DNA of 45,435 bases from Candidatus Micrarchaeota archaeon (GTDB taxonomy: Archaea > Micrarchaeota > Micrarchaeia > Micrarchaeales > CABMGC01). Shown in pieces: positions 12,902-45,435 of the stretch. The notes beneath the pieces were generated by a model. It did no database searches, was not told where the DNA came from, and worked only from the letters and a program-made list of their open reading frames with translations. The stretch is taken from contig JAJYXO010000029.1 in assembly GCA_021801765.1 (NCBI GenBank), positions 1-45,435 of the forward strand, read 5' to 3'. The position numbers and the translations under genes are program-made. Within the stretch, counting starts at the first letter, position 1. Every line of letters begins with the position of its first letter.

Positions 12902-13435
12902 ATGATGGGAAAATTTAGATTGCAAAGCGCAATGGAATACCTGATGACCTACGGCTGGGCCATCTTGATAATAGCTGTAACACTTGGTGCATTGGCGTTC
13001 CTAGGAGTATTCAGCGGAACAGGATTGCTCCCTACTGCTTGCATAGCGTCATCTGGCTATATATGCAACAACCCCGTATACATCCACCAGACCGGCGGAG
13101 AAGGTAACCTTATAGTCACAATAGGGCAGTCTACAGGAACTCAATGGAATACTGCAAATGTGTATTTCGTTCCACAATCTAGCGAGGGCTCTGTGGCCTC
13201 TGGAACATCTCTGACTTCGGCTTCGTATGTGGGATCAAACACTAACGGCGGTACCGGATGGACATTCCCAAGCGGTATGCAACAATCAGTGACTATACAA
13301 ATACCTACATCTTCGGGGACAACTCCGCCAGGGACATCGCTTCAAGGCTATCTGTGGGTTACATATACCACGTCTTCAGCCGGCGCTGCGCCGCTAGAGA
13401 CAGAGTTTGCAACAGTCACTGCAAAGGCGTCCTGA
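12902..13435 (+). CDS. Class-III signal peptide (archaeal type IV pilin-like, DUF361-type) protein
   Basis: N-terminus MMGKFRLQSAMEYLMTYGWAILIIAVTLGALAFLGVF is a basic stretch plus Q-S-x-E-Y-L plus a hydrophobic helix. The remainder is Ser/Thr/Gly-rich and beta-type. Confidence 0.75.
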   Translation: MMGKFRLQSAMEYLMTYGWAILIIAVTLGALAFLGVFSGTGLLPTACIASSGYICNNPVYIHQTGGEGNLIVTIGQSTGTQWNTANVYFVPQSSEGSVASGTSLTSASYVGSNTNGGTGWTFPSGMQQSVTIQIPTSSGTTPPGTSLQGYLWVTYTTSSAGAAPLETEFATVTAKAS

Positions 13436-16036: not shown

Positions 16037-16408
16037 ATGATATCCCGACATAAAATTGTCTCAATATGTATAAAAACACTGTTCCTAGCATCTACCCTAT
16101 CGCTGGCGGCCAAGCCTGCTTACGGGTTTATTCCGCTACCGAACCTTGACATACTATCTACATTATCTTATGTGCAGGCCCTTTTGATGAAGGTAGGGCC
16201 TCTTCTAAGCGCTGTTTTGTTCGTAACCGCAGGCATATTCTATGCTATAGGCCAATTTTTCCCTTCATACAAGAGGGCAAGCCTACATGGCATGTCCATA
16301 GATATGATAATAGGCGCGATAGTTGTCGCTGCACTATCAGTTGCATCTACTGGCCTCGCCGCAGCTTCAACCAACCTGCTCTCAAACATTACCTCAAACT
16401 CACTGTGA
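16037..16408 (+). CDS. P1: small secreted two-helix membrane protein, VirB2/TrbC/TedC/CedA1-like layout (candidate conjugative-type pilin)
   Basis: Signal-peptide-like N-terminus (MISRHK + IVSICIKTLFLASTLSLAA + KPAYG). Then hydrophobic helix 1 (LLSAVLFVTAGIFYAIGQFF), a basic loop PSYKRASLHG, and hydrophobic helix 2 (IIGAIVVAALSVASTGLAAA). Confidence 0.55.
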   Translation: MISRHKIVSICIKTLFLASTLSLAAKPAYGFIPLPNLDILSTLSYVQALLMKVGPLLSAVLFVTAGIFYAIGQFFPSYKRASLHGMSIDMIIGAIVVAALSVASTGLAAASTNLLSNITSNSL

Positions 16409-16412
16409 GAAG

Positions 16413-17444
16413 ATGCGACTATTTTGGGAATATGGTTTTTCCATAGCCGTAGACCTGATAGCGATAATGATCGCAGTAAGCGGCATATCGCTTGGAATTG
16501 GATATGCGTTTAACGAGAAGAGGCTCAAAGAATTCGGCAGGCAGGAGCTCTTCCAGTCTATATTCAACGGTATCCTTGTCGGGTGCTTGCTTGCCCTTTT
16601 TTCCACGCATGGCATAATTGGGAATCTTATAACTGCACTAACGCAATCAAAAGGCACAAGTTTTTCGTGCAGCGAGGCGTTGTCAGGAAACCCTGCAATA
16701 TGCTTTGCCTATAACTATCTGGTAGGCATTGGGCCTTACACATTTATGGGCCAAAGCAATCAATCTGTACTTAGCGTTTCTACGGAACTAATAACTGGCC
16801 TCCTGGGGCTTAATGCGATCATCGGCATAGTAGCTGGTATAAAGATCAATATATTTGTCATTAGCATTTCGTTGGCTTCAGTATTGAGCCCAATAATAAA
16901 TGAAATACAATATATCATACGAATCCTCGCAGACGTATCAATAAGTGCAATAGTACAGGCATCTCTGCTAATGTTCGTATCTGTAAGCTCAATTACTGCA
17001 ATACTGCCGACAGGCCTGATCCTAAGGTCATTTCTACCAACGCGGAAGATAGGTGGATTCCTGATATCTCTCAGCATAGGGTTCTACGTCGTCTTCCCCC
17101 TCACATACGTATTCAATGCTGCTCTCATAAGCTCCTATTCTGGCAGCATCAGCAACACTTCAATAGGCTCTGTAAGCATCAACGCTTCAAACCTTGAAAA
17201 TACGCTTCTTTCTGCAAACCCTGGCACTAACGAGAGCCTAAGTCGGCACATAGCATCGCTTGCTTCGGGCATCGAGGCGTCTCTCGCAGGTATGATGAAT
17301 GGCATAATGTCGGATGTTGCATATCTGCTGATGTATGCATTTATCCTGCCCGCATTCAGCCTTATCTTAACTGCCGTATCAATTAGAGAAATAGCCTCGT
17401 TGCTAGGGTCAGAGGTATTTTTTGGTAGGTTCAGGTTATTATGA
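16413..17444 (+). CDS. P2: polytopic (about 7 TM) membrane protein, VirB6/TrbL/CedA-like by layout only
   Basis: ATG 16413 lies 4 nt after the P1 stop; the ORF-track start at 16323 overlaps P1. There are multiple 20-25-aa hydrophobic segments and Asn/Ser-rich loops carrying N-x-S/T sequons. Confidence 0.6.
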   Translation: MRLFWEYGFSIAVDLIAIMIAVSGISLGIGYAFNEKRLKEFGRQELFQSIFNGILVGCLLALFSTHGIIGNLITALTQSKGTSFSCSEALSGNPAICFAYNYLVGIGPYTFMGQSNQSVLSVSTELITGLLGLNAIIGIVAGIKINIFVISISLASVLSPIINEIQYIIRILADVSISAIVQASLLMFVSVSSITAILPTGLILRSFLPTRKIGGFLISLSIGFYVVFPLTYVFNAALISSYSGSISNTSIGSVSINASNLENTLLSANPGTNESLSRHIASLASGIEASLAGMMNGIMSDVAYLLMYAFILPAFSLILTAVSIREIASLLGSEVFFGRFRLL

Positions 17445-18175
17445 TGCAAACAGGCTATGGCTATCGCAAAAATAAGATATATTCATACATGATATACTCA
17501 CTCTCTGCAGCCTTATTTACTGCCAGCATATTCTCATACTCTGCCTTGCTTGTGTTTTCATCCGCTATACTGCTCTTACTTGCTTCTATATACTACAACA
17601 GCGGCCACATTGTAAATAACCTGCTGTTGCGCAAATCAAAGGTAATAGAAATATACAACGGATACAAGCTCAGCACCGAAGGATTGTCCCTCTGCAAACG
17701 AAATGGCAATGAATTCGTTAGCATTTCAGCTGCAATATTAACTCCGAATAATATATCCAATATAACTCCAGAAGATTATGAATCCGTAATAGAGAGTGTT
17801 CATGAACCATTTGACCTCTCTATTTCAATAGTCGAAGAGGGCAAAAGCCGAATACTTGAAGATCTTAATACAAAACTCAAGATGAAAGAGATAGAGCTTG
17901 CGAAAATCGACCCTGGAAAATATGACAGGATAAACAGCATAAAACGGGATATCACAGTAATAGAGGGCGATATTGAAGATATATCTTCTGGAGGCAAAGC
18001 ACTTTCTATTTATATTATCCTCAAAACACGCGCAACTTCAGCTAATGAGATCGACGCAATAGTGGAATCTGCTAAAAATATCGAACGTTTAGCAGAATCT
18101 TTCGCTGCTTCATGCAGGCTTGAATACAATATACTTAGCGGAGAGCATCTAATCCGCGCATTGGAAAGCTGGTGA
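17441..18175 (+). CDS. P3: 2-TM protein with a soluble coiled-coil domain (candidate VirB3 plus VirB4 N-domain equivalent)
   Basis: ATGA overlap with P2. N-terminal hydrophobic hairpin (IYSLSAALFTASIFSYSALLVFSSAILLLLASIYY). Soluble part has the pattern ...KSRILEDLNTKLKMKEIEL...GGKALSIYIILKTRA..EIDAIVESAKNIERL. Confidence 0.5.
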   Translation: MMQTGYGYRKNKIYSYMIYSLSAALFTASIFSYSALLVFSSAILLLLASIYYNSGHIVNNLLLRKSKVIEIYNGYKLSTEGLSLCKRNGNEFVSISAAILTPNNISNITPEDYESVIESVHEPFDLSISIVEEGKSRILEDLNTKLKMKEIELAKIDPGKYDRINSIKRDITVIEGDIEDISSGGKALSIYIILKTRATSANEIDAIVESAKNIERLAESFAASCRLEYNILSGEHLIRALESW

Positions 18176-18176
18176 T

Positions 18177-19259
18177 ATGCTTCAATACGATGGGTTTCTA
18201 TCCGGCTCTAGGAGGATATCTAGATTGATCTGCATGCCTACATTTGCAAAGCCTGAAACAGGAAAAAATGAAAGAAGTTCCGCTGATAAGATATATCTTG
18301 GCAAGACCTCTATCCTTTCCATCCCGTTCTTCCTTGACTTCGATTCTACATTCAATCCTCATGTATTGATAGCAGGAACAAGCGGCAGCGGAAAAACCTT
18401 CACAATTAAAAGCATTATGGCAAAATTAGGGCTAATCTGCAACTCCTCTATTATTTCATTAGATTTTACCGGGGAATATGCAAGCGTTGCAAAACTAATC
18501 TCCGCTTCTAGCAAAATAGAGGATTGCATAGATGGCTCAGTGTATATAAACCTGAAGAGTTTGCCTGATATGAAAATTGCAGAGGAGATAAATAGTGTAT
18601 TGGCAGAGCTTACTTCAATAATGAAAAGCAGGCGGCAACCTGCAAATAGGATATTTATAATTATAGACGAGGCCTGGAAATCAATCAGCGATAGCCCTTT
18701 CTTATCAAGCATAATACGCGAAGGCAGAAAATACAATATATGCATGATATTAGCCTCGCAACTTGTAAATGACATAAAGCCGCAAATGATTGCAAACATA
18801 TCCACTACATTGGCATTTAGATTGCAGGATAAGTTGGGGATACAGTGCCTCATCAAAAACTACGGATTAAAAGATGAAGCGTATACAACCTTTGGTTCGC
18901 TTCAGATAGGGAGCTGTATTGCAATACAGGCGCTTAAATCGGGCAGATGCCGCAGCCTGCTTATAGACAAAGTTGCTGGCGCTAGAGTTGATGGGTCCGC
19001 CAAATTGAAAATAGGTGAAAATGTGGTAGAAATAAAACTAGATGATCTCGAACGTATCATACGCATGATTTCAAAAACCGATCCTTCAGTATTTATCCAG
19101 AAAATTGAATCTGACGGGAGCATAACAACTGCTGAGCTTATAAATCAAATGCTCAAGTTAGGGGCAGAAAGACGAAAAATATTATCTGAATTAAGAAAAC
19201 TTAAAATCACTGACAATGAGCTATCTGACGCATTTGCATCTTCCGAGGCGCTTAAATGA
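18177..19259 (+). CDS. P4: HerA/FtsK/VirB4-clade (DUF87-type) P-loop ATPase with C-terminal wHTH-like tail
   Basis: Walker A HVLIAGTSGSGKTF, Walker B RIFIIIDEAWK, and REGRKYNICMILASQ (the RKYG-type motif of HerA-like ATPases). Confidence 0.75.
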   Translation: MLQYDGFLSGSRRISRLICMPTFAKPETGKNERSSADKIYLGKTSILSIPFFLDFDSTFNPHVLIAGTSGSGKTFTIKSIMAKLGLICNSSIISLDFTGEYASVAKLISASSKIEDCIDGSVYINLKSLPDMKIAEEINSVLAELTSIMKSRRQPANRIFIIIDEAWKSISDSPFLSSIIREGRKYNICMILASQLVNDIKPQMIANISTTLAFRLQDKLGIQCLIKNYGLKDEAYTTFGSLQIGSCIAIQALKSGRCRSLLIDKVAGARVDGSAKLKIGENVVEIKLDDLERIIRMISKTDPSVFIQKIESDGSITTAELINQMLKLGAERRKILSELRKLKITDNELSDAFASSEALK

Positions 19260-19924
19260 GGAAAAAAGGCTATTTGATAAGCAGGATAAGCATGAAGGCG
19301 AGGCTGCTAGGAAACCTAAAGAATGTAGAATCGCTAATCAACCAATACCCATACAATGAGAAAATCTCAGGCGGCAGCAGCCTCAAATACTTAATACGCG
19401 AAGATGAAAAAGCCAGCGAGCGCTTTTACATTATCGACTTTGGAAAAAGCTTCATAAATTTCTCTACATTTTCATCTACTTCGCCTCTAAACTGCATAGA
19501 AGAATCCCTTGCGAGGCTGCTAACTATTATCTCAACTCTCGGAGACAATTACGAAGTAGAGGTAAAAAACCTATTTCCATATTTGATATATGCATTAATG
19601 CGGCAGCGTCTCGTGTATTATATGGAAAATTTAAAAGAGCCAAATGATAACTCTGTCGACTTAATGCTTGCCCGTCGCATAAAACGCTTGCTCATTGAAA
19701 ACAATAAACTTAAATCTGAGCTTTCCGAGGCAAATGGAAAGCTAATGCGCATATTGACGAACCTCATAATTGCAAAATATCCTAACAACGCGAGCTTGCT
19801 TGAAATTGCAGAAAACAATGGGCTCAGCAAAAATGATGTAAATGAAGCCCTTTCCAAATTGCGGAAAAATGGTTATTTTGTAAGGCAAACTTTAGGCGGA
19901 AGATTTAGCGTGGTGAAACTATGA
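19256..19924 (+). CDS. P5: coiled-coil protein with C-terminal winged-helix domain
   Basis: 4-nt overlap with P4. C-terminus is ASLLEIAENNGLSKNDVNEALSKLRKNGYFVRQTLGGRFSVVKL. Confidence 0.55.
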   Translation: MRKKGYLISRISMKARLLGNLKNVESLINQYPYNEKISGGSSLKYLIREDEKASERFYIIDFGKSFINFSTFSSTSPLNCIEESLARLLTIISTLGDNYEVEVKNLFPYLIYALMRQRLVYYMENLKEPNDNSVDLMLARRIKRLLIENNKLKSELSEANGKLMRILTNLIIAKYPNNASLLEIAENNGLSKNDVNEALSKLRKNGYFVRQTLGGRFSVVKL

Positions 19925-20400
19925 TTTTCGATTATTTAATGCGACTGTTCCCAATAGCAATCGGCGCATTTGCGGCCTATATGCTGACAAAAATAAATAT
20001 ATCCAGCAGAAAAGTGAGTATACTTCCAGGCACAAGCCCTTCTTCCTGTTCTGCCGAAGAGATTAGATTTGATTCAATTGACCGTAAACTGCTCCTTAGG
20101 AAATATTCTTTGGATGAACTTATAATAAATGGAAAATTCGAAACATTAAAGCCAAACATCGAATTCCTTGCGTTCTATAAGTTAGGGCTCATTGATGCAA
20201 CAAACTACAGCCCCCACCGCCGTTACATTTTCAAAAAAATAAAAAGAATCAAGATTTTCCTTATACGGAAAGAAGAGCTGTCAAACACAATGGCCTTCGG
20301 GTCTCTGTCTGGGATAATTATGGCTTATATGCTCGGGTACAAGTTAGATCTTGTATGCTCCAGTGATGCGGCAAGCCTATCTGAGATGATAAGGTGGTAG
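19921..20400 (+). CDS. P6: small membrane protein with two TM segments (N- and C-terminal)
   Basis: LMRLFPIAIGAFAAYMLTKI and MAFGSLSGIIMAYMLGY. Overlaps P5 by 4 nt and P7 by 7 nt. Confidence 0.5.
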   Translation: MIFDYLMRLFPIAIGAFAAYMLTKINISSRKVSILPGTSPSSCSAEEIRFDSIDRKLLLRKYSLDELIINGKFETLKPNIEFLAFYKLGLIDATNYSPHRRYIFKKIKRIKIFLIRKEELSNTMAFGSLSGIIMAYMLGYKLDLVCSSDAASLSEMIRW

Positions 20401-22571
20401 CAATAAAAGTATTTAGAGTCGATTCGATACCTTCAAATATAAATTATAAGTTACTAATCAACTCTGCGCTTAATGAACAGTTCATGATATATCATGATTT
20501 ATCTGAATCTGAAACATTGATGCTTGCAACCAGCGAACTCGTAGCATCATTGCACAATTCTATCCCTGGTTTGTCCGTATCTGAGAAATACAAATCATTC
20601 AATCTTAGTTCCATGCGCTATTTGTCTATATACACTAAAAATAACCAGCAACCTCTATGGGATATATACAATATCCTAAAAGGCCATAGCTCTGGGCTGT
20701 TTGTATCTTTCTGCCCGTCAAATTACAAGCATGTAAAGAAAACTAAAGACCGCATAGCTGACTTTATGAGCAGGGAGGAGATACGTGTCACAAAAAGTAT
20801 TATCCCATTAGACAAAAGATCATCAGGGTCAATACAATCTGACTTGTACTATGGTTATGACAGCCGGATGGCTAATACTTCATTGTTGGAAATGCTCTCC
20901 GAATCTCTTTTCCTAAATGGCACATCCTACAAAGTTGCGATGATAATCGAAAGCTATTTAGATGAGCACCTATTTACCTATTTGAAATCCAAATTAAAGG
21001 TAATATATCAATGTGAGATTCACCCTATGTGGATTGAAAAATTATGGAAAATCGCAATTGATAAAGATGCAATACCCTTTTCTCAGGAGGCCTCCTCTTC
21101 TCTTCTCTCGTTTTCTGAAAGCACAATCAAGGAACTAGTGATAAATTCCCCTGCCAAAATTTCTAAGGCTGGAATTTTTATAGGGACTAGGATGCTTGGA
21201 GGAGTAAGTGAGACCAATGATAAGATTTGCATACCAATTCCAACCTTAAACTTAGGTGTAATAATAACCGGAGTCCCTGGGACTGGGAAGACCTTCGCAG
21301 CCATGAATATAGTAGAGCAGGTTTTACGTGCAGGCATGCGTAATATTGCAGTTATATCTCCAACTTCGGAATGGGGCAATATTGCATCAGAATGCGGTAT
21401 GAACCTTGTACGCATATCTGATCCAGCCTTGAGCCTGAACCTTTTCGGATGCAGCGACGCAAACGTATCCAGGTTCTATGAAAACCTTGCCATGCTAATT
21501 GCAAACTCCTGCAACGCAGGCCCTTATACAAACCCACTGGAAAAGTGCCTCTTGTCTGCCTTCCATAAATGTTACTCCGAAGCACTGGATCCCGATCCAA
21601 CTGAACTTTACGAGCAGATAGAGGAGGCAATTATAGAGCAACATGGGAAACGCAGCAATGCAGGTGTAAAATATACTAAGCATGGAGAGAACATACGCTC
21701 TGCGCTTGAAAGCATAAGGCTATTAATAATGAAGCGTCAATTCGCATACAATGGTGGAACTAAGATCAAAGATCTGCTTAAAAACGGAGTAATATTCGAT
21801 CTTTCTGGAGCCAGCAACAGCACCAAACCGCTTTTTTATTCGCTGATACTAAACCAAATATACTCTTACGCTGAACAGTTTGACGAGCTTGGGGACGGGG
21901 CTCTAAGAATGCTGATATGTGCGGAGGAAGCGCATCTTGTTTTTGGCAAAGCTAAAAAATCCGCGCCTTCTGTGGACCTTGGCCAGAGGATGCAAGATTT
22001 CAGGAAAAGAGGGATATGCATGATGCTAGTAACCCATAATGTGACTGACATAGATGATACACTCAGGAGATTATGTCAGATTAAAATGTATTTTAGGCAA
22101 AACTCCGATATTGCTAAGTACGCTGCAAACGATCTAATATTTTCAGAAAAGGACTTTACGGAAGTTGCTGATAAGCTCAAAACCCTAGGGCAGAGGATAT
22201 GCGCATTAAATCATATAAACCAAATTGGAACATCTAAAAACCCGACATCATCAATTTTTATGAAAGCTTCAGAACAGAATCATACACAGGCGCCAATGCC
22301 TTCTCTAGCAAACAACGAATCAAGAAATAAGACAACTATTGTTTCATTGTTTAAGGCAGACGGATCACCTGCAGCCTGCTTCAAAGCGGAGGTACGTTAT
22401 GTTCATGAAGTATTATTTTCAGGGTACACGGATGAAGCTGGTCATATAAAGTCAAATGCCATATTGGATGGGAAAAAATGCGAACTAATTATTTATGGTG
22501 AGAAAAGAAAGGATAATCGGCTATTTTACATAATCGGAGGGGAAGAATCCATAATAAAACTTAACTGCTGA
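20394..22571 (+). CDS. P7: large HerA/VirB4/VirD4-clade P-loop ATPase with C-terminal beta-sandwich-like domain
   Basis: Walker A LGVIITGVPGTGKTF, Walker B LRMLICAEEAHL, and FRKRGICMMLVTHN. C-terminal about 90 aa (IVSLFKADGSPAACFKAEV...YTDEAGHIKSNAILDGKKCELIIYGEK) resembles a CarboxypepD_reg/PEGA pattern. GTG start. Confidence 0.75.
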   Translation: MVAIKVFRVDSIPSNINYKLLINSALNEQFMIYHDLSESETLMLATSELVASLHNSIPGLSVSEKYKSFNLSSMRYLSIYTKNNQQPLWDIYNILKGHSSGLFVSFCPSNYKHVKKTKDRIADFMSREEIRVTKSIIPLDKRSSGSIQSDLYYGYDSRMANTSLLEMLSESLFLNGTSYKVAMIIESYLDEHLFTYLKSKLKVIYQCEIHPMWIEKLWKIAIDKDAIPFSQEASSSLLSFSESTIKELVINSPAKISKAGIFIGTRMLGGVSETNDKICIPIPTLNLGVIITGVPGTGKTFAAMNIVEQVLRAGMRNIAVISPTSEWGNIASECGMNLVRISDPALSLNLFGCSDANVSRFYENLAMLIANSCNAGPYTNPLEKCLLSAFHKCYSEALDPDPTELYEQIEEAIIEQHGKRSNAGVKYTKHGENIRSALESIRLLIMKRQFAYNGGTKIKDLLKNGVIFDLSGASNSTKPLFYSLILNQIYSYAEQFDELGDGALRMLICAEEAHLVFGKAKKSAPSVDLGQRMQDFRKRGICMMLVTHNVTDIDDTLRRLCQIKMYFRQNSDIAKYAANDLIFSEKDFTEVADKLKTLGQRICALNHINQIGTSKNPTSSIFMKASEQNHTQAPMPSLANNESRNKTTIVSLFKADGSPAACFKAEVRYVHEVLFSGYTDEAGHIKSNAILDGKKCELIIYGEKRKDNRLFYIIGGEESIIKLNC

Positions 22572-35630: not shown

Positions 35631-37193
35631 TTACGTATTATTCTTTCCGACAGAGTACTCATAGACATTATACCAATAGAAATTATCTCCCCAATTGCTG
35701 AAGAGCGTGTAGTTTCTCAACCAACTCTCCATAACCGGCGAATAAACGAGCGAGAGAGAACAGCTCTTATACCCTGTCACGTTCCCCACAATGAATGAGC
35801 CATTACTCAGATCCATGGAGTTTATAGTTTCGCATCCTATCGACCCGAAAGGGTACCCCTGCGCCATTTCCGGCACATGCCTTGAATCTACATAATAGCT
35901 AAGCGGAACTGCGTATGGCATGTACACCTTCGCTCCCGCATGCTGCGAATTGATATAGCTGCCTATCTGCATCAAAGGCTCTGTAGCGCTGAGTTGTGAA
36001 TAATCTATGTACCTTGCATCAGCAATTGCAGATATCACCAAAAGAAACCCTATCGCTGCTGAGGCAGTTTGTATTGCCATCTTTTTAGGAGCCTTCATTC
36101 TCCCTGCCCTCCTGATAACCTCTGCAAGCGCTATTCCAACAATGAGTGTAATAGGAGGTATAAACATAAGCGCGTACCTTGGGCCTATGTAAAGCACAGG
36201 TATATACTTCTCAAAACTTATGCTTCCAAACCCTAAGTAAAGAATAGAGATCAGCAGCCAATATGCCAGTATAGTTCCTTTCCTGAACCTGATTGCAGCT
36301 AGATATGCGCCTGCTACAACAACAGCATAGCCAAAGTAACCAAACGCAAGGCTGCCAAGGGTAACAGGGTCTGTTTTCCAGTTAAGGAAGAGATCCTTAA
36401 TATAAGAGCCCATGGCCGGCTGCGTCCCTGAGAAGTACATGTTGTAATTCTGCGAATATACGCTCATCACAAAGGACGGACTTCCTCCTTCGTAGATACC
36501 TATAACTATTACTACTGCAAGCGCAGCGCAAATCCCCACCGCATAAAAGCAGAAACCTATAGAAAGGCGCCTCCTTCTCTTATATATTACCAATGAGAGT
36601 AGGTAAGCGGAGAGGAATAGGATCCCTATCGCTGCTTCGGAGACTGAAAGTAAATTTATGGCGACCACAAAGCCTGACATAAATAGATATCTATTCATAT
36701 CCTTCTCCCTTTTCAGCGCAAGAATAGCAAGCATAACTCCCAATGATACGAGCATCATCATAGGTATGTCATCTCCTACATTAGAGCTCTGGGAGAGAAC
36801 TAACGGCATTACCGAGTAAAAGAGCCCCGAGATCACTCCAGCAGCCTTCCCGTGCAGCTCCCTTCCGATAATATAAATAATTACTATGGTGGCTGAGAAG
36901 CAGAATATCCCGAAGAGCGCTGCAGAAAGCAACCCTTCTCCGAAGAGAAGAAAAAAGAAAGCTACCCCTGCAAAGATTAGATAGTTTGTGCAGTCTACTA
37001 TCGTGCACCCGATCTGCTTTACCTGCCCGTGCGCCAGAAGGCCTGCTTGTGAGAAGTAAATGTAGTTATCTGATCCATTTATCCAACTAGGCCCGTAGAA
37101 ATACGCTATGTTATTAAAAATGCCTAAGGCTATGATGGCTGCAATTGCAACGAGATGCCAATTCTCGCGCAGCCAGATGTGCCTTCTCTGCAT
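35631..37193 (-). CDS. GT-C fold membrane glycosyltransferase (GT39/GT83, PMT/ArnT-like)
   Basis: 520 aa, more than 10 TM segments across the N-terminal two thirds, soluble C-terminal domain. Family assignment is by architecture. Confidence 0.6.
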   Translation of the reverse strand: MQRRHIWLRENWHLVAIAAIIALGIFNNIAYFYGPSWINGSDNYIYFSQAGLLAHGQVKQIGCTIVDCTNYLIFAGVAFFFLLFGEGLLSAALFGIFCFSATIVIIYIIGRELHGKAAGVISGLFYSVMPLVLSQSSNVGDDIPMMMLVSLGVMLAILALKREKDMNRYLFMSGFVVAINLLSVSEAAIGILFLSAYLLSLVIYKRRRRLSIGFCFYAVGICAALAVVIVIGIYEGGSPSFVMSVYSQNYNMYFSGTQPAMGSYIKDLFLNWKTDPVTLGSLAFGYFGYAVVVAGAYLAAIRFRKGTILAYWLLISILYLGFGSISFEKYIPVLYIGPRYALMFIPPITLIVGIALAEVIRRAGRMKAPKKMAIQTASAAIGFLLVISAIADARYIDYSQLSATEPLMQIGSYINSQHAGAKVYMPYAVPLSYYVDSRHVPEMAQGYPFGSIGCETINSMDLSNGSFIVGNVTGYKSCSLSLVYSPVMESWLRNYTLFSNWGDNFYWYNVYEYSVGKNNT

Positions 37194-37718
37194 CTATGAC
37201 ACACCAAAAGTCGTATTCGTCCAGAGCTCTAGTTCCATATCTGCCTGCCTGCCGTCTATGCTAACAGGCTCGTTGATAACCTGTATGGCAAGCGCATTGT
37301 ACCTGGACGGGTTCCTCCCTATAGTAATGTTAATGCCGCTTCCGCTTATCTCTAGGAAGTAGTCGTATCCGACTCCCATTGCAGGCTTTGTTTCCTGATA
37401 ATCATAGTTTGACATTGCAGCAAGAGAGAGGACCTTTCCTGCATCAATGCCCCCTTGCCCGCCAAGGCCTATGGTTATGTTGCTCCATGTCACCGTGTTG
37501 CTTACATTCAGATCAGAATCCCAGTTTGCCGGACTACCCTGCTGCAGCATTCTTCCAGCAAGGGCCTGTAGCTGTGATTGCATGTTTCCCATGCTATTGC
37601 TATATGCGATGGAGAACTGGCCGCTGACACTAAGCCAGACGTATGTGATGATAATCATTGCAGCTATGAAGATGATCATTGCAAAAATTATGTCGAAAGA
37701 CCAGAATTGCGCCTTCAT
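37194..37718 (-). CDS. Pilin-like / class-III-signal-like secreted protein
   Basis: MKAQFWSFDIIFAMIIFIAAMIIITYVWL is a short basic N-terminus, a Q and a hydrophobic helix. Several N-x-S/T sequons. Its stop abuts the start of the GT-C gene. Confidence 0.45.
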   Translation of the reverse strand: MKAQFWSFDIIFAMIIFIAAMIIITYVWLSVSGQFSIAYSNSMGNMQSQLQALAGRMLQQGSPANWDSDLNVSNTVTWSNITIGLGGQGGIDAGKVLSLAAMSNYDYQETKPAMGVGYDYFLEISGSGINITIGRNPSRYNALAIQVINEPVSIDGRQADMELELWTNTTFGVS

Positions 37719-37773: not shown

Positions 37774-38505
37774 ATGGCGATTGACATTCATGGCAAGGTT
37801 GTGGATTATAAAAAATTCACCATAGTGCTGCCTACCCTAAATGAAGAAGAGACAGCGCCTAGGCTAGTGCATAAATTGATGGATAGGTACAAAGGAATAC
37901 ACATAATAGTAGAGGACGACAGCAGCGATGCCACCACAGCAGAAAAGATAAGGAAAATAGCTTCTGGTAGCAAGAGCGTTAAGATAGTCCGCAGGCGTGA
38001 AATGCAGAAGATCAAAGGTCTTTCTTCAAGCGTGATAGACGGAATACTCTCTAGCGATACCGAATACTCCATAGTTATGGATGCGGATTTCCAGCATCCA
38101 TACGAGAAGGTAGCAGATATAGCCAGAAAACTTGATGAAGGATACAACATCGTAGTGGCAAACAGGAAGGAGGTAAAAGAATGGCCGCTTTACAGGAAGA
38201 TAATATCACTCACACTGATTCGCCTAGCAGACTTTATACTAACCGCAGAAGGGAGGCAGCGGTGCGATGATGTATTCTCCGGGTTCTTCGGCGTTAGATG
38301 CAATTTCTTCGCTAACATCTACCGCAATAACAGCAAGAGATTTGTCAAGAATGGATTCAAGATCCTCTTCGACTTGCTCAAATGCATAGATAAGGGCAGC
38401 ATAAAAATATGCAATGTGCCATACTCGTTCGGAACGAGGGGAGGCGGGAGCTCAAAGGCAGGAGTCAAACAGGCTATGGCCCTATTGAAGTCTTTTATAA
38501 CCTGA
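37774..38505 (+). CDS. GT2 glycosyltransferase, dolichyl-phosphate sugar synthase (Dpm1-like)
   Basis: FTIVLPTLNEEE, IIVEDDSSDAT and VMDADFQHP (DxD). Confidence 0.8.
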   Translation: MAIDIHGKVVDYKKFTIVLPTLNEEETAPRLVHKLMDRYKGIHIIVEDDSSDATTAEKIRKIASGSKSVKIVRRREMQKIKGLSSSVIDGILSSDTEYSIVMDADFQHPYEKVADIARKLDEGYNIVVANRKEVKEWPLYRKIISLTLIRLADFILTAEGRQRCDDVFSGFFGVRCNFFANIYRNNSKRFVKNGFKILFDLLKCIDKGSIKICNVPYSFGTRGGGSSKAGVKQAMALLKSFIT

Positions 38506-40061: not shown

Positions 40062-41234
40062 GTGATTCGCATGCAAATTCCGTTTGAATCTATACCAAAG
40101 GAGTTTATCTCATCAACTGCTTTTTATGATTACAAAGAGCCCATCACATCTGCAGTAGACAAAATAAACAAGTACGGCGCGGTAGTAGTCACAAAAGATG
40201 GCAAATACTATGGCATTGTAGACGATAGAACTATCTCCAGGAAAGGAACGAACATATCAAAGAACATGGCCATTGGAAACTTTGCTTCAAAGCTCTATGC
40301 GCTAGGAAAGGCAGACACCCTTGAACGCGCCATTTACATTATGTACGAGTCCAGGACAAAAGCGTTGCCATATATTGACAATGGAAATGTTTCTGGGATA
40401 ATAAAAAGGGAGACAATGCTCAAGGCAATCCTTTCTTTGCATCTCCTCTCAGAATATAAGGTTGAGACGTTAATGTCCACTCCTATCCTTGCGATAGACT
40501 CCAACTCTACGGCATCGCAGGCTCAGGCTGCAATGGCGCGCGGGCAGGTTTCGCGCCTTCTTGTAACTTCTGGCCATGGTTTCGGGCTCATAACCTACAA
40601 AAGCATCTTCGGAAAGGCAGCTAAGATAAGAGAAAGGGCGCAGAAATACAGCAAAGCAGATCAGAGGGGCGGAAAATCTGGAGCCTATGCCTCTGGCGGT
40701 CCGAAAGTATACGAGCTCTCAGAGAACAATGCGCACACTATTCAATACAACGGCACAGTGGAAGATGCGATAAGGCTGATGGTAGAGCATAACATCTCTT
40801 CCCTTATAGTAGTTAAGAAAGAGAAGCCTATCGGAATAATGACAGTCAGGGATATCTTTGAAGCTATAATAAAGGAGAGCTTGGTGCATAAGGACAACAT
40901 AATGGTCTCTGGCATCGACAAATACACGCAAGAGTATGAAGGCGATATAAGAAATGCGCTAGACAAATTGGATGAGCGCATAGACCGATTCCACGATCTT
41001 AAGGCAGATGCGATAGCATTCCATGTGAAAAGGTCAAAGTCGCGCAATTACGAAATGCACCTGCGCATATGGCTAAATAAAAGAGGCGCTGTCTCTGTGC
41101 ATGCAAATGGATACTCTATAGATTCTGCGATGAAAGACCTCACTGAAAAAGCGTACAAGTTCATAAAGGAGAAAAAGGAACTGGTGCAGGCTACTGCTAG
41201 GCAAAGTAAAAGGGAGTACGATGAAGAAGAGTAG
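40062..41234 (+). CDS. Four-CBS (two Bateman modules) protein fused to a C-terminal HPF/RaiA (S30EA)-like domain
   Basis: CBS-like segments include VVVTKDGKYYGIVDDRTI, ALPYIDNGNVSGIIKRE, SRLLVTSGHGFGLITYKSI and SSLIVVKKEKPIGIMTVRDI. C-terminal about 95 aa (IMVSGIDKYTQEYEGDIRNALDKLDERIDRF...AFHVKRSKSRNYEMHLRIWLNKRGAVSVHANGYSIDSAMKDLTEKAYKFIKEKKE) parallels the E. coli HPF beta-alpha-beta-beta-beta-alpha pattern. Confidence 0.6.
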   Translation: MIRMQIPFESIPKEFISSTAFYDYKEPITSAVDKINKYGAVVVTKDGKYYGIVDDRTISRKGTNISKNMAIGNFASKLYALGKADTLERAIYIMYESRTKALPYIDNGNVSGIIKRETMLKAILSLHLLSEYKVETLMSTPILAIDSNSTASQAQAAMARGQVSRLLVTSGHGFGLITYKSIFGKAAKIRERAQKYSKADQRGGKSGAYASGGPKVYELSENNAHTIQYNGTVEDAIRLMVEHNISSLIVVKKEKPIGIMTVRDIFEAIIKESLVHKDNIMVSGIDKYTQEYEGDIRNALDKLDERIDRFHDLKADAIAFHVKRSKSRNYEMHLRIWLNKRGAVSVHANGYSIDSAMKDLTEKAYKFIKEKKELVQATARQSKREYDEEE

Positions 41235-41685
41235 GCTACAATCGAGCTTCGAGTTGTTGATGACGCTATCATTTGGACTTGCAATACTCACTCCACTGGT
41301 ACTTATAGCATTCCTACAGCTATCTAACGCGAATGTATCTCTTTCTTCTATAGAAGCACAGCAGGCCGCCGACAAGCTCGCAAGCGTCTCTGCGATAATA
41401 GGCAGCGAGGGGCCCCCTGCAAAACAGACAGTGCAGATAAACATGCCCCCAGGTGTGAAGTACATCTATGTTGGCACTTCATCAGATAATGTCGGCCATG
41501 TAATAATATTTGTAGTTATTTCCCAGACTGGCCTAAGCGATGTAACTGCATATTCTCCAATAAACGTGAGCGGCAACCTTGGAGGAATAACCTCACCTGG
41601 CACATACCTGGTTAACGTAAGCTCCGAGTCCACCTGCCCATCACAGCTAAGCGTTGGATGCGTATACCTTTCTCCAGCCGTATAG
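41221..41685 (+). CDS. Class-III signal peptide (type IV pilin-like) protein
   Basis: MKKSRLQSSFELLMTLSFGLAILTPLVLIAF has the same R-L-Q-S-x-x-E-L/Y-L-M signature as 12902. Overlaps the upstream gene by 14 nt. Confidence 0.7.
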   Translation: MKKSRLQSSFELLMTLSFGLAILTPLVLIAFLQLSNANVSLSSIEAQQAADKLASVSAIIGSEGPPAKQTVQINMPPGVKYIYVGTSSDNVGHVIIFVVISQTGLSDVTAYSPINVSGNLGGITSPGTYLVNVSSESTCPSQLSVGCVYLSPAV

Positions 41686-41694
41686 GGTGCAGAA

Positions 41695-44600
41695 GTGAGA
41701 TTACAGATATCACTCGAATTCATGCTTGTCTTCACGTTCGTCACTACAATCTTTCTATTTGTGACCACAATGGTCTTGGATCAAAAAGCTGTCATAACCA
41801 ACCAGCAGACATTTGCAAATCTTCAGATGGTGGCACAAAGCATAGCCCATCAGCTGAATATTGCATCCAAAGCAGGAAGCGGATATGCCGCCAATATACC
41901 TATATCCTCTGCGTTCGGTATAAATCTCTACAACATAACCATAACTAGATCCGGGACTGTTATAGCTTATGCAAAATATGGCCGGCAGTTCATAAACGCA
42001 GTTGCATATTCAAACTCCCAAGGCGTATACGCATCCAATGACATAAATACCAATTATCTCATGCTGCAGAACTCCTTCGGCGAGATATGTGTTGACATCA
42101 TCTGCGCAAACTCCACTTCAGGCGCTGCGCAGATAAGCCTCTCATCTATATCCACGCATGCTGCATTGCTGAATGGCAACAGCGGCTATATACAGTTGCA
42201 GTCGCAGCCTAGTTGGTCTACTGCATTGACTGTTTCAGCCTGGATAAATACTAAGGCAACACCGTCTACTGGCAACTATTTCGAGATATTCAACAACAAT
42301 CAGGTCTTTATGAGAATTTCAGGAGATCCTACGGACCATTCGGTAGACTGCTTTGTCAAACTTTCCGATGGGTCTGTGGAACCAAGGGCAACTAGCGGAA
42401 TAGTGCCTTTGCCTAATTCATGGTATATGGCCACATGTACCTGGGCAAGCAATACGCTCTCCATCTATGTTAACGGGAAATTGGAGGACACATCGTCTAG
42501 AGCAGGCACGCTTGCATCATCTACAGTAGGTCCGTATATAGGAAGCTCTGAGCAGGCTATCCTGCCTCCTCACAATACATGGAATGGGCTTATAAGCAAC
42601 GTACAGCTATATGGAACCGGACTCTCAAGCCAGCAAGTGCATTCCCTCTACCAAGAAGGGATAAACGCACAGCCAATTTCAGGAGCAGGCATCTTGGGCT
42701 GGTATCCTCTGGATGGCAACGCCAATGACTACTCCGGAAACGGCAATAACGGCTACATACATGGCCCAGTGCTCTTCCCTGCCGTGAGCGAGCTTCAGGC
42801 CAAAGCTACTAACAAAGAAGGATACGCTATCTCAAATGTGCTGATTGGCTTTGCAACAACCCTTGGCAATTTCACCTTTGGACAATCATATGCAAACTAC
42901 ACCGATGCGAATGGAATAGCAAGAGCATTCCTCACCCAGCAAGGTGCCAATGGGTATGCGAGGGTAAAGGCAACGCTATACACCGAAAACATCAGCACAT
43001 CCAACAGCCTTGTCGGCTGGTGGCCCCTCAATCTAGATCAAGGCAATTTTGCACAGGACATTAGCGGATACGGCAGCACGGCAAATATGATCTACGCTTC
43101 ATGGAGCAACCCTGCAAGCGTGGCTCAATTCAACGGGAGGGATTCTTACGTAAGCCTTGGCAACTCCCTTGTGCTTAACACAGGCCAAGTTACTGTAAGC
43201 GGCTGGGTCTACATAAACTCAACATCCGTAGATGGAAACAGACACGACTTGTTTGATGACTCTGAATCTACTTCTGATTTGGGCACCGGAGGAGGAATAG
43301 TCTTTGCCATGCCAAGCGAATCAAGCCAAGGGGAAGACATACATTTCTGGGTCACAATAAATTCCCCGCATAATTGGTATGCTGCTAATGCGCCTATCAT
43401 AACAAACAGATGGGCATTCGTAACTGGTACGTACAACGGCAGCGATGTTAACCTTTTCATAAACGGCCAGCTTGCAGATAGCTACCCTATATCCGGCAGC
43501 TTTCTCCAGCCTCAAGGTTCAAGCTTCATAGGCTCATGCGAGCAGTTTGTGCAAGGCGGATACTGCGGCGAGGCAGCAAATGGTTATGTTACAAACCCAT
43601 TCAATGGCAAAGCAGCAGACCTGCAGATATATAATATTGCGCTTACCCCGTCACAGGTTAAGACCCTCTATGGAGAAGGCATGTCTGCCCCTCCCATAAT
43701 GAGCGCAAATGCTATTGGATGGTATCCTTTGAATGGCAATGCCAATGACTACTCTGGAAACGGATACAATGGCACTATCGCTGGCGGTACGCTATTTGTG
43801 CCTCTGAACAGCCAGCAGTCAGAATCTTCAAATATCAATGCAAGCAGCATGCTAAGCGCAAGTTTCAACGGCGTTAGCAGCTATGTTGCAATACCTCCGA
43901 GCAAATCCTTAGATATAACTGGAAATGTTATCTCATTAGATGCCTGGGTGCGAATCTCCGCACCCTCGAGCCTAAGCGAGGTAATATCAAATGAACCTAC
44001 AGGCGGCGGCTACTATATGTGGATTGATAGCACATACCGCGTGCATTTCGGATTCAACCATGGAACAGGGGAGGTTGTATCTTATGCTCCGCTGCTGCAA
44101 GGCAGGTGGTACAATCTCGCTGGGGTATACAATGGCACAAAGCTCTCAATATATATTGACGGTGAAGAATCAAATTCAATATCTGCATCATTGCCAATAA
44201 GCAATGCCAATTGGACATTCATAGGCGCCTATGGCGGCAACACGGTAAGCGCATACACAGATTTCATAAAGGGCAATATCTCAGATGTTCAGATATATGA
44301 CAGCGCTCTACCTCCTGCTGATGTCTCAAGTCTCTATCAAGAGGGAATGGCAGGTCTTCCATTAAACAATGCAAACCTCTCTGGCTGGTGGACGCTGGAC
44401 GGCAGCGCCAACGACTATTCCTCCAATGCAAACACCGGCAATGCCGTAAACGTGACATACTCCTCTCAACAATCCGTACCAATTTCGATGCTATACTCCC
44501 TGAGCGGCTACGGGGCTGATTTCAACGATAGCACCATAATAGCAGCATCACCAAACTCCATGACCAACAACTGGGCCAAAGGCTGGACCATCGGAGGGTG

Positions 44601-45435
44601 GATCCAGTACACAGCAACAAACTCGATAGGCATATGTGGATATATGGGGGGAGTCCAACAGAATGCTGGCACTCCAAGATTCGGGGTAGCAGCAGGGTGT
44701 GATCGCGCCTACCCATTGCCATACGTGGAGCTTATAAACTCCGGAGGCTCAAATTGCAATACGTTTAGCACGAGCAATCAAGCTCTCCAGCCAAATACAT
44801 GGTATTATCTCACTGGAACTTGGAACTCCACCACTGGCAAGATTGAGCTTTACGTAAATGGCATGCTATACGCTGAAAATCAATGTCCTACTGGCACATG
44901 GAATCCCTCCTCTATAACTCCAGGCAGCCCATTCAACTATGTTATTGGCGGAGTAGGCGGGACCAAATTTACTGGCAGAATAGCCAATTTAATGCTGTAC
45001 AATGAGTCCCTGCCAGCCTCCGAGATATACAAAATGTATGCAAATGGTATACCCCCTGACGCAACAGCCACAATTCCGCTTGCCTATGCGACCCAGGCTC
45101 CCGCATTTAACATTCCCCAAACTATACCTTTTGTAACATATACTGCAAATGCAGTGATAACTACTGGCAACCAGAATACATTCACTTACACGGTAAATAA
45201 AAACGGAGATCAGACGCTGATTATGATAGCCTCTGCAGGAGACGGCATAAGCGTTACAACCCCTTCTGGCTGCAGCACCATAGTAAACAGCACCGATCCA
45301 TACCAGGGATTCTCTGTATTGAACTGCCCTGACCAATCCTCCGGGCAGCATTCTGCAACTCTGACGGCCCTTAGCGGTTATGGCACTGCCTACATCTCTT
45401 ATGCTGCTTATGTGCTTTCACAACCGCCCCCTGGA
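41695..45435 (+). CDS. Giant (at least 1247 aa, 3'-partial) pilin-signal-anchored protein with four LamG (concanavalin-A-like lectin) domains; candidate adhesin
   Basis: Not in the ORF track. I read frame 1 codon by codon from GTG 41695 to 45435 and found no stop. N-terminus is (M)RLQISLEFMLVFTFVTTIFLFV. The linker G-W-[YW]-P-L-[DN]-G-[NS]-A-N-D-Y-S-G-N-G recurs at nt 42697, 43717 and 44383. Each module ends L-Y-[QG]-E-G or M-Y-A-N-G. There are many N-x-S/T sequons. Confidence 0.88.
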   Translation, partial: MRLQISLEFMLVFTFVTTIFLFVTTMVLDQKAVITNQQTFANLQMVAQSIAHQLNIASKAGSGYAANIPISSAFGINLYNITITRSGTVIAYAKYGRQFINAVAYSNSQGVYASNDINTNYLMLQNSFGEICVDIICANSTSGAAQISLSSISTHAALLNGNSGYIQLQSQPSWSTALTVSAWINTKATPSTGNYFEIFNNNQVFMRISGDPTDHSVDCFVKLSDGSVEPRATSGIVPLPNSWYMATCTWASNTLSIYVNGKLEDTSSRAGTLASSTVGPYIGSSEQAILPPHNTWNGLISNVQLYGTGLSSQQVHSLYQEGINAQPISGAGILGWYPLDGNANDYSGNGNNGYIHGPVLFPAVSELQAKATNKEGYAISNVLIGFATTLGNFTFGQSYANYTDANGIARAFLTQQGANGYARVKATLYTENISTSNSLVGWWPLNLDQGNFAQDISGYGSTANMIYASWSNPASVAQFNGRDSYVSLGNSLVLNTGQVTVSGWVYINSTSVDGNRHDLFDDSESTSDLGTGGGIVFAMPSESSQGEDIHFWVTINSPHNWYAANAPIITNRWAFVTGTYNGSDVNLFINGQLADSYPISGSFLQPQGSSFIGSCEQFVQGGYCGEAANGYVTNPFNGKAADLQIYNIALTPSQVKTLYGEGMSAPPIMSANAIGWYPLNGNANDYSGNGYNGTIAGGTLFVPLNSQQSESSNINASSMLSASFNGVSSYVAIPPSKSLDITGNVISLDAWVRISAPSSLSEVISNEPTGGGYYMWIDSTYRVHFGFNHGTGEVVSYAPLLQGRWYNLAGVYNGTKLSIYIDGEESNSISASLPISNANWTFIGAYGGNTVSAYTDFIKGNISDVQIYDSALPPADVSSLYQEGMAGLPLNNANLSGWWTLDGSANDYSSNANTGNAVNVTYSSQQSVPISMLYSLSGYGADFNDSTIIAASPNSMTNNWAKGWTIGGWIQYTATNSIGICGYMGGVQQNAGTPRFGVAAGCDRAYPLPYVELINSGGSNCNTFSTSNQALQPNTWYYLTGTWNSTTGKIELYVNGMLYAENQCPTGTWNPSSITPGSPFNYVIGGVGGTKFTGRIANLMLYNESLPASEIYKMYANGIPPDATATIPLAYATQAPAFNIPQTIPFVTYTANAVITTGNQNTFTYTVNKNGDQTLIMIASAGDGISVTTPSGCSTIVNSTDPYQGFSVLNCPDQSSGQHSATLTALSGYGTAYISYAAYVLSQPPPG

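Follow-up and report, generated by a model that had tools for sequence, protein, structure and literature searches.

At the end of a 45,435-nt stretch of contig JAJYXO010000029.1 (the whole of this stretch is called the window below), which comes from a Micrarchaeon, a DPANN archaeon, lies the greater part of a giant gene whose product joins a pilin-like N-terminus to four LamG domains and is regarded here, with somewhat better than even confidence, as a modular minor pilin or pilus-associated adhesin. Direct translation of frame 1 from the GTG at 41695 to the last base of the window passes through 1247 codons without a stop, as a preliminary description of this DNA had stated, and the open reading frame (ORF; 41695..45435, + strand) corresponds to residues 1–1247 of a 1347-aa protein that the window end cuts. 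Its omission from the mechanical ORF list, also pointed out there, arises because it runs off the window with no stop inside it. The frame is limited upstream by a TAG at 41683–41685, and the next start codon is GTG 41695; 5 nt before this codon the sequence itself shows a GGTG (41686..41689, +), a possible Shine-Dalgarno-like site for ribosome binding. The choice of this start is supported by that element and because homologs begin at the equivalent position, opening with MRLQISLEF..., as in P0004 (MRLQISLEFILVF...) and in cluster member P0126 (1347 aa; MRLQISLEFMLVF...). The stop, for which extension of the contig had been proposed, is visible in the sister contig L001, and together with the 97–98% identical homologs P0001 and P0126 this gives the full length of 1347 aa. 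The complete protein has a mass of 142.9 kDa and the portion in the window alone 132.5 kDa, in line with the earlier estimate of more than 130 kDa.

Public gene calls for several members of the family, namely P0001 (97% identical; 1338 aa), P0124, P0125, and P0128, begin at an internal ATG, and this is why the first nine residues are missing from entries such as P0001. The small pilin-like gene that precedes the giant gene in L001 (9539–9964) is publicly called as 141 aa, from an internal Met. Calls of this kind strip the signal motif and therefore hide the pilin character of the proteins from annotation pipelines.

The N-terminus of the giant protein reads (M)RL-QISLE and continues as FMLVFTFVTTIFLFVTTMV, with Gln4 at position +1 and Glu8 at +5 of a putative prepilin peptidase site before Q4 (41704). 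A basic residue, Gln at +1, Glu or Asp at +5 and some 20 hydrophobic residues thereafter constitute a class-III-like signal; in Methanococcus maripaludis, pilins processed by EppA bear a +1 Gln, +5 Glu signature and their signals end in Gly (PMC3875500). The predicted three-residue leader (M)RL (41695..41703, +), which motif conservation suggests would be removed by a prepilin peptidase, is short and positively charged, and leaders across the family comprise 3–35 residues and end in K/R-x. When 120 homologs were searched with the pattern [KR]-x-Q-[ILFVM]-[AST]-x-[ED]-[YF], 97 contained it, most of the remainder being truncated or begun at an internal Met, and Gln at +1 and an acidic residue at +5 are present in all those that match. 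A slightly relaxed pattern ([KR]xQ[ILFVMS][AST]x[ED][YFL]), scanned across six frames of the window (90,870 residues), occurs exactly three times (12917, 41233, and 41698), each time at the start of an ORF and followed by a hydrophobic run, which agrees with the preliminary description, where the giant protein was said to share its class-III signature with small proteins encoded at 41221 and 12902. All three signals read R-L-Q, i.e., they have Leu at −1, which could mean that the peptidase is not strict about the −1 residue or that processing occurs at another site.

Profile searches place Pfam family PF04021 (Class_IIIsignal) at the top for the N-terminus, and one homolog carries the JGI name 'UPF0333 family'. 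An AlphaFold2 model of residues 1–162 (mdc888cbd471a; 67 sequences, mean predicted local distance difference test (pLDDT) score 85.4) shows a 59-residue helix (residues 2–60; 41698..41874, +) followed by seven beta strands to residue 133. The beta-strand head, as delimited from the model and the alignment (residues 65–133; 41887..42093, +), ends in the conserved motif QNSFGxICVDxxC, which contains Cys132 and Cys137; C132, D134, and C137 show little or no variation in the family alignment, and the two cysteines probably form a disulfide. The Kyte-Doolittle maximum falls at residues ~5–28, the sole strongly hydrophobic segment of the protein, and no C-terminal membrane anchor was found in the hydropathy scan.

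An N-terminus of this kind might also belong to an ordinary Sec-exported LamG protein, secreted or associated with the surface layer (S-layer), for which the hydrophobic segment would be a generic signal peptide or anchor and the nearby pilus genes a coincidence. In favor of such a protein are the NCBI annotation of homologs, which is just 'LamG domain-containing protein', the frequency of LamG proteins with signal peptides in DPANN archaea (PMC9563170), and the failure of the pilin profile and fold searches described below. The leader, however, is only three residues long, the invariant Gln and acidic residue would lie inside the would-be Sec hydrophobic core, and the three such motifs in the window are all at ORF starts. 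The S-layer protein of Micrarchaeota belongs to a different family, PF05123 (10.1101/2021.04.28.441871), and identity of the giant protein with it was rejected on this ground. Taking these points together with the synteny set out below, plain Sec export appears improbable.

The body of the protein contains four LamG domains. The whole protein matches Laminin_G_3 (PF13385) with E = 2.2e-75 in four stretches, and when these were scanned separately each exceeded the gathering score of 27.6 bits on its own, which bears out the four LamG-like modules proposed from the sequence: LamG domain 1 (residues ~160–315; 42172..42639, +) scores 78.5 bits, domain 2 (residues ~480–656; 43132..43662, +) 74.4 bits, domain 3 (residues 726–878; 43870..44328, +) 89.3 bits, and domain 4 (residues ~954–1111; 44554..45027, +), the most strain-variable of them, 54.9 bits. 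Pairwise identity among the four is 29–36%. Since the fold is shared with the concanavalin-A-like glucanase superfamily, a glycan-degrading enzyme in place of an adhesin might be considered, but profile scans matched no glycoside hydrolase family, the ExDxxE motif of the GH16 type was not found, and the domains match non-catalytic LamG, pentraxin, and toxin receptor-binding families, so that an enzymatic role is highly improbable.

A recurring element, GW(Y/W)PL(D/N)G(N/S)ANDYSGNG, follows LamG1, LamG2, and LamG3, and there is an extra degenerate copy between the Ig-like (immunoglobulin-like) insert and LamG2. Copy 1 (GWYPLDGNANDYSGNGNNG; 42697..42753, +) serves as the reference for a 57-nt repeat; copy 2 (GWWPLNLDQGNFAQDISGY; 43015..43071, +), which was recovered by motif search, is the degenerate one, and copies 3 (GWYPLNGNANDYSGNGYNG; 43717..43773, +) and 4 (GWWTLDGSANDYSSNANTG; 44383..44439, +) are respectively 84 and 72% identical to copy 1 in DNA. 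The element had been described as a linker conserved at the nucleotide level at 42697 and 43717; the repeat is real, but the element, which is found on the N-terminal side of the Pfam LamG core and hardly varies between family members, is better viewed as a conserved domain-junction element than as a loose linker. Between copies 1 and 2 is an Ig-like insert, probably of the intimin/invasin type known as Big_1 (residues 365–432; 42787..42990, +), which had been labelled CarboxypepD_reg-like. That label was rejected, as no such profile matched residues 350–440 at E ≤ 1 or the whole protein at E ≤ 0.1. Instead, Big_1 (PF02369) gives 31.3 bits (E = 2.2e-7), just missing its cut-off of 34.9, and an AlphaFold2 model of residues 325–480 (m1ad96abc11d0; pLDDT 85.4) has as its top Foldseek matches intimin (1f00, 6tpl) and invasin (1cwv), with a probability of 1.00 and a root mean square deviation of 1.5 Å over 65 columns but an E value of only 6e-3.

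The N-x-S/T sequons number 18, consistent with the earlier count of at least 14, but composition shuffles give 21.6 ± 4.1, so that enrichment was rejected and no significance attaches to the number. Following residue ~1125–1135, where the rest of the family ends (query coverage 91% for the other homologs), is a lineage-specific C-terminal extension of ~220 aa, the start of which lies in the window (45070..45435, +). Searched against 1.84 billion representatives, the extension retrieved only P0001 itself and weak, repeat-inflated matches to LapA-domain adhesins, and it has no PDB or Pfam match.

The family comprises 266 proteins at E ≤ 1e-5, typically of 1080–1150 aa, among them homologs with E values from 0 down to 1e-60, and those that are named come from Micrarchaeota. 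A survey restricted to one genome per species returned 71 loci, nearly all of them titled Micrarchaeota, Micrarchaeia, or Micrarchaeaceae, and the family appears to be essentially confined to this phylum. One locus is labelled 'Candidatus Acidiferrales bacterium' and a few are labelled Marsarchaeota; contigs with such labels, L034 (DATLRT010000029.1), L023, and L039, hold the complete Micrarchaeota pilus and LamG locus, and since they carry the same locus, the labels probably reflect mis-binning.

One conserved locus surrounds the giant gene in all four of the distant homologs that were looked up. It consists in order of a CBS-domain gene (3/4), a gene for a ~158-aa pilin-like protein (3/4), the giant gene, a ~179-aa gene, a gene for a PQQ beta-propeller and LamG protein of ~725 aa, and a gene for a LamG protein of 655–1175 aa, after which the opposite strand carries two T2SSF genes, a ~200-aa gene, and a T2SSE ATPase gene. 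Class-III-like N-termini are present on all five secreted proteins. Among evaluable loci of the survey the ~179-aa gene immediately follows the giant gene in 50 of 52, the small pilin-like gene immediately precedes it in 29 of 58, and T2SSF or T2SSE occurs within ~13 kb in 34 of 42, the last being far beyond the coincidence that Sec export would imply. Archaeal 'system 1,' reported from methanogens, Thermococcales, and DPANN archaea (10.64898/2026.04.22.720090), likewise combines a single ATPase with two platform genes, and it was assigned to locus MIA14_0170–0177 of the Micrarchaeon Mia14. The loci that were inspected showed no dedicated prepilin peptidase gene; Micrarchaeota do encode such an enzyme, e.g., MIA14_0570 (PMC5498576).

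In the window the trio of CBS, small pilin-like, and giant genes remains complete and closely spaced, the first two genes overlapping by 14 nt and the last two being 9 nt apart. The first gene (40062..41234, +) encodes a 390-aa CBS-domain protein, as identified by PF00571 in its orthologs in L001–L004 and by tblastn synteny. The second (41221..41685, +) encodes a small pilin-like protein of 154 aa with a class-III-like N-terminus, MKKSRLQSSFELL, and a hydrophobic run; its orthologs have N-termini of the form ...QSSFELL..., and it may be a minor pilin or a partner of the giant protein. An ortholog of the ~179-aa class-III-like protein (MKAQFWSFD...) is displaced to 37194..37718 on the − strand, where it abuts a PMT_2 glycosyltransferase gene (35631–37193). 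A further pilin-like protein of 177 aa, MMGKFRLQSAMEYLMTYGWAIL..., stands alone at 12902..13435 (+) with the motif at its ORF start, and is a candidate major pilin. None of these three small proteins has a Pfam, NCBIfam, or PHROGs match, and BLASTP comparisons of them with the N-domain of the giant protein gave nothing significant. In L001 the giant gene is followed by a methyltransferase gene and a PMT_2 gene in convergent orientation. In another lineage, L077, all the pilin-like genes are present, and no machinery adjoins them.

Glycosyltransferase genes flank the locus, including the PMT_2 (GT-C) gene at 35631–37193 (−), a GT2 gene at 37774–38505, and a second PMT_2 gene in L001 (14780–16453). 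Their products may glycosylate surface proteins, though the sequons of the giant protein are not enriched.

The favored interpretation, a modular minor pilin or pilus-associated adhesin, can be expressed as a sequence of steps. The leader MRL would be cut off before Gln4 by a prepilin peptidase, and the hydrophobic half of the ~59-residue helix would hold the protein in the membrane, with the acidic residue at +5 permitting its handling by the pilus machinery. That machinery, an ATPase and two platform proteins, would then pull the giant protein out of the membrane, and the small beta head would dock into a minor-pilin complex with the neighboring class-III-signal proteins. Pointing away from the cell, the chain LamG1 – Ig-like – LamG2 – LamG3 – LamG4 – extension would act as a multivalent, lectin-like adhesin, either at the tip of a type IV pilus-like fiber or in association with it; there it could bind glycans of the host cell or its matrix and so serve in host attachment. 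The proximal scaffold would stay constant and the distal LamG modules vary and recombine. The preliminary description had drawn the same general conclusion from the combination of a prepilin-type N-terminus with multiple LamG modules, and it gains support from the motif in 97 of 120 homologs, the model of helix and head, and the presence of machinery in 34 of 42 loci.

Several observations weigh against this interpretation. Leu occupies the −1 position in this protein, as it does in half of the family (97 motif-bearing homologs: L 49, A 29, G 6, S 4, I 4, N 3, Q 2), whereas known archaeal prepilin sites typically have Gly or Ala at this position (PMC3875500). PF04021 reaches 12.8 bits for the giant protein and 14–15 bits in homologs against a gathering score of 23.7, so that of the two Pfam families suggested at the outset Laminin_G_3 passes its threshold and Class_IIIsignal stays below it. 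The structure prediction that had likewise been suggested delivered a helix and head of good confidence but no match to a solved pilin: a Foldseek search of the N-terminal model against the PDB gave a best E value of 0.09, to unrelated HIN and RecO folds, and no solved pilin can therefore be named as a relative. A profile built from 21 N-domains found no match among PDB sequences at E ≤ 10. The search for pilus machinery in this organism took in the window together with 24 kb of sister contig L001; profile searches of the 45,435 nt detected no ATPase, platform protein, or prepilin peptidase, and the other pilin-like genes and the machinery are absent from the 10 kb after the giant gene in L001. 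The closest relatives, L006 and L079 (40% identity), have only the trio, with none of the other pilin-like genes and no machinery after it. A subunit of 143 kDa could sit only at the tip or outside the fiber core. LamG_3 domains are not always lectins, and we know of no archaeal pilus that has been shown experimentally to contain such a protein.

The detachment of the giant gene from ATPase and platform genes in this genome and its closest relatives, together with the very large size of the product, which argues against packing into a fiber, and its single N-terminal hydrophobic helix, would suit a membrane-anchored surface lectin that never enters a fiber. In such a protein the helix, cleaved or not, would tether a LamG chain that crosses the S-layer by itself or as part of a bindosome-like assembly made by pilus-type machinery. 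Class-III-signal proteins other than pilins do exist, as in the sugar-binding proteins of the Sulfolobus bindosome (subsystem 4I; 10.64898/2026.04.22.720090), and the pseudoperiplasm of Micrarchaeum is just 20–25 nm wide (10.1101/2021.04.28.441871), a distance that a chain of seven domains could span if rough geometry is a guide. A mere anchor, however, would have no need of the +1 Gln and +5 acidic residue that every motif-matching homolog retains, and the tight synteny in most genomes with four other class-III-like proteins and with machinery suggests a complex that is assembled together. An anchored lectin is thus considered unlikely, if a possibility that deserves some weight.

Comparison of strains locates most of the variation in the distal part of the giant gene. 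Over the ~10 kb that precede the gene, the window and L001 are separated by a single base difference, and the first 2555 nt of the gene itself are the same in both; from 44250 to 45435 (L001 12529–13714) the two then differ at 68 of 1186 nt (5.7%), affecting 31 codons synonymously and 31 nonsynonymously. This strain-variable region (44250..45435, +) is a mosaic, as five further alleles from independent assemblies carry the same variants in mosaic combinations. Among these close alleles the proportion of variable sites is 0.7–1.7% in the pilin head, LamG1, Ig-like domain, and LamG2, 3.6% in LamG3, and 7–8% in LamG4 and the extension. The abrupt switch in divergence, after ~12.5 kb of practically complete identity, and the mosaic alleles suggest that strain variants have recombined or that assemblies are chimeric. 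The assembly may have broken where it did because the end of the window contig falls within this variable stretch.

A similar gradient is apparent across the family, in which the pilin head (31–56% identity) and the Ig-like domain (33–62%) are the best conserved parts and keep fixed positions, and the LamG modules are ~30% identical and not positionally orthologous. LamG1 of the giant protein is 63% identical to module 1 of P0002 and 58% identical to module 4 of P0003 (residues 931–1091), but only ~30% identical to the modules at the same position in most orthologs. Its likeness to a fourth module indicates a shuffling of LamG cassettes among family members, and the contrast between a conserved head and Ig-like domain and variable LamG modules implies a constant scaffold that carries outward modules prone to diverge and to change places.

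A bolder extension of the favored interpretation, put forward tentatively and thought unlikely to hold, is that the Micrarchaeota-wide locus encodes a dedicated host-recognition organelle. Its five class-III-signal proteins would form a tip complex in which three are giant modular pilins bearing LamG and beta-propeller modules, and specificity would be re-tuned by recombination of LamG cassettes at the conserved GWWPLNGNANDYSGNG junctions. Hints in this direction are the mosaic distal alleles, the resemblance of LamG1 to the fourth module of another ortholog, and the perfectly conserved proximal scaffold. If cassettes do swap at junctions that are conserved also at the DNA level, the mode of diversification would resemble that of phage receptor-binding proteins.

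Elsewhere in the window, a six-gene cluster at 16323–22571 (373, 244, 360, 222, 159, and 725 aa) has a lower G+C (guanine plus cytosine) fraction of 0.39–0.42. Its 360-aa protein matches DUF87, TrwB, and AAA_10, and its 725-aa protein matches HerA. The cluster recurs upstream of the pilus locus in L003 (1198–4656), and in L002 the upstream region contains a HerA_C gene. The cluster may represent a conserved secretion-like or DNA-transfer-like module.

Filamentous connections of DPANN archaea have been seen by microscopy. To our knowledge, no adhesin has yet been identified for the attachment of these organisms to their hosts. A family of giant proteins that is conserved throughout a phylum and encoded mostly in a type IV pilus locus offers a concrete, expressible target for the question of how hosts are found and held, and the strain-variable distal domains suggest where binding specificity would lie. 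The result will not surprise a specialist but provides a good experimental handle on host attachment. Already known are the large adhesin-like proteins with class-III signals that were predicted in archaeal pilus loci in 2016, the linkage of LamG proteins to a pilus locus in a Micrarchaeon (2017), and the lectin-module pilins of bacteria. The explicit pilin-like head on Micrarchaeota LamG proteins, their fixed architecture and junction motif, the quantified phylum-wide synteny, and the distal mosaic variability are new here.

Among known systems, the bacterial lectin-module pilins provide a close analogy in design. PF13385 is one of the commonest modules grafted on bacterial modular pilins, and in Streptococcus sanguinis the lectin module of PilC binds glycans and the protein has been modelled as capping the pilus with partner minor pilins (PMC8179133, PMC9934059). 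Like PilC and other proteins that combine IPR012902 with PF13385, the giant protein has a short N-terminal pilin-like module followed by bulky concanavalin-A-like (LamG_3) modules, is encoded beside other putative minor pilins, and is predicted to cap a filament and to bind glycans. It differs in having an archaeal class-III-like signal with Gln at +1 (MRL↓QISLEF) in place of the bacterial N-methylation motif G↓(F/M)TLIE of IPR012902, no bacterial pilin family having matched, and neither sequence nor structure searches detected a match between the pilin modules. Moreover, PilC has one such module and a mass of 53 kDa, whereas the giant protein has four LamG domains and an Ig-like domain in 143 kDa.

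In archaea, TafC is the LamG-bearing tip subunit of the Tat-fimbriae of Haloarcula hispanica, its LamG domain being modelled facing outward at the tip (NF052521; PMC11821415). The giant protein gives a weak match to its NCBIfam profile over the LamG part only (profile positions 186–362; 67.9 vs. 410 bits) and has no twin-arginine (RR/Tat) motif, and membership of the TafC family was rejected. Taf fimbriae assemble by donor-strand exchange from a beta-sandwich N-domain instead of an alpha-helical pilin module. Similarity is also evident with the Epd pili of M. maripaludis, with their EppA-processed DUF361/Class_IIIsignal pilins, and related 'system 1' loci, which likewise have two platform genes, an ATPase, several pilin-like genes, and the +1 Gln/+5 Glu signature (PMC3875500, PMC4858521, 10.64898/2026.04.22.720090), and which include large secreted proteins predicted to be tip adhesins with class-III signals. 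Those of Micrarchaeota differ in that −1 is often Leu and not Gly, the PF04021 threshold is not reached, and the large proteins are LamG_3 arrays and not DUF2341 proteins, the Pfam scan having given no match to that family.

A further close counterpart is in the same phylum. LamG-like jellyroll proteins were linked in 2017 to a type IV pilus locus, MIA14_0170–0177, of Candidatus Mancarchaeum acidiphilum Mia14 (PMC5498576), which, compared by its description, also has a CpaF-like ATPase, two TadC proteins, and a secreted component. The passages of that account dealing with the locus do not describe a pilin-like N-terminus, a fixed domain order, or a junction motif for the LamG proteins (PMC5498576), and, as far as the description extends, the giant gene of the window is distinguished by its detachment from the machinery and by its extra C-terminal extension. 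The Mia14 locus was there assigned to a system of the Methanococci/Thermococci type, and the role proposed for it, interaction with the host, is the same as that suggested here (PMC5498576).

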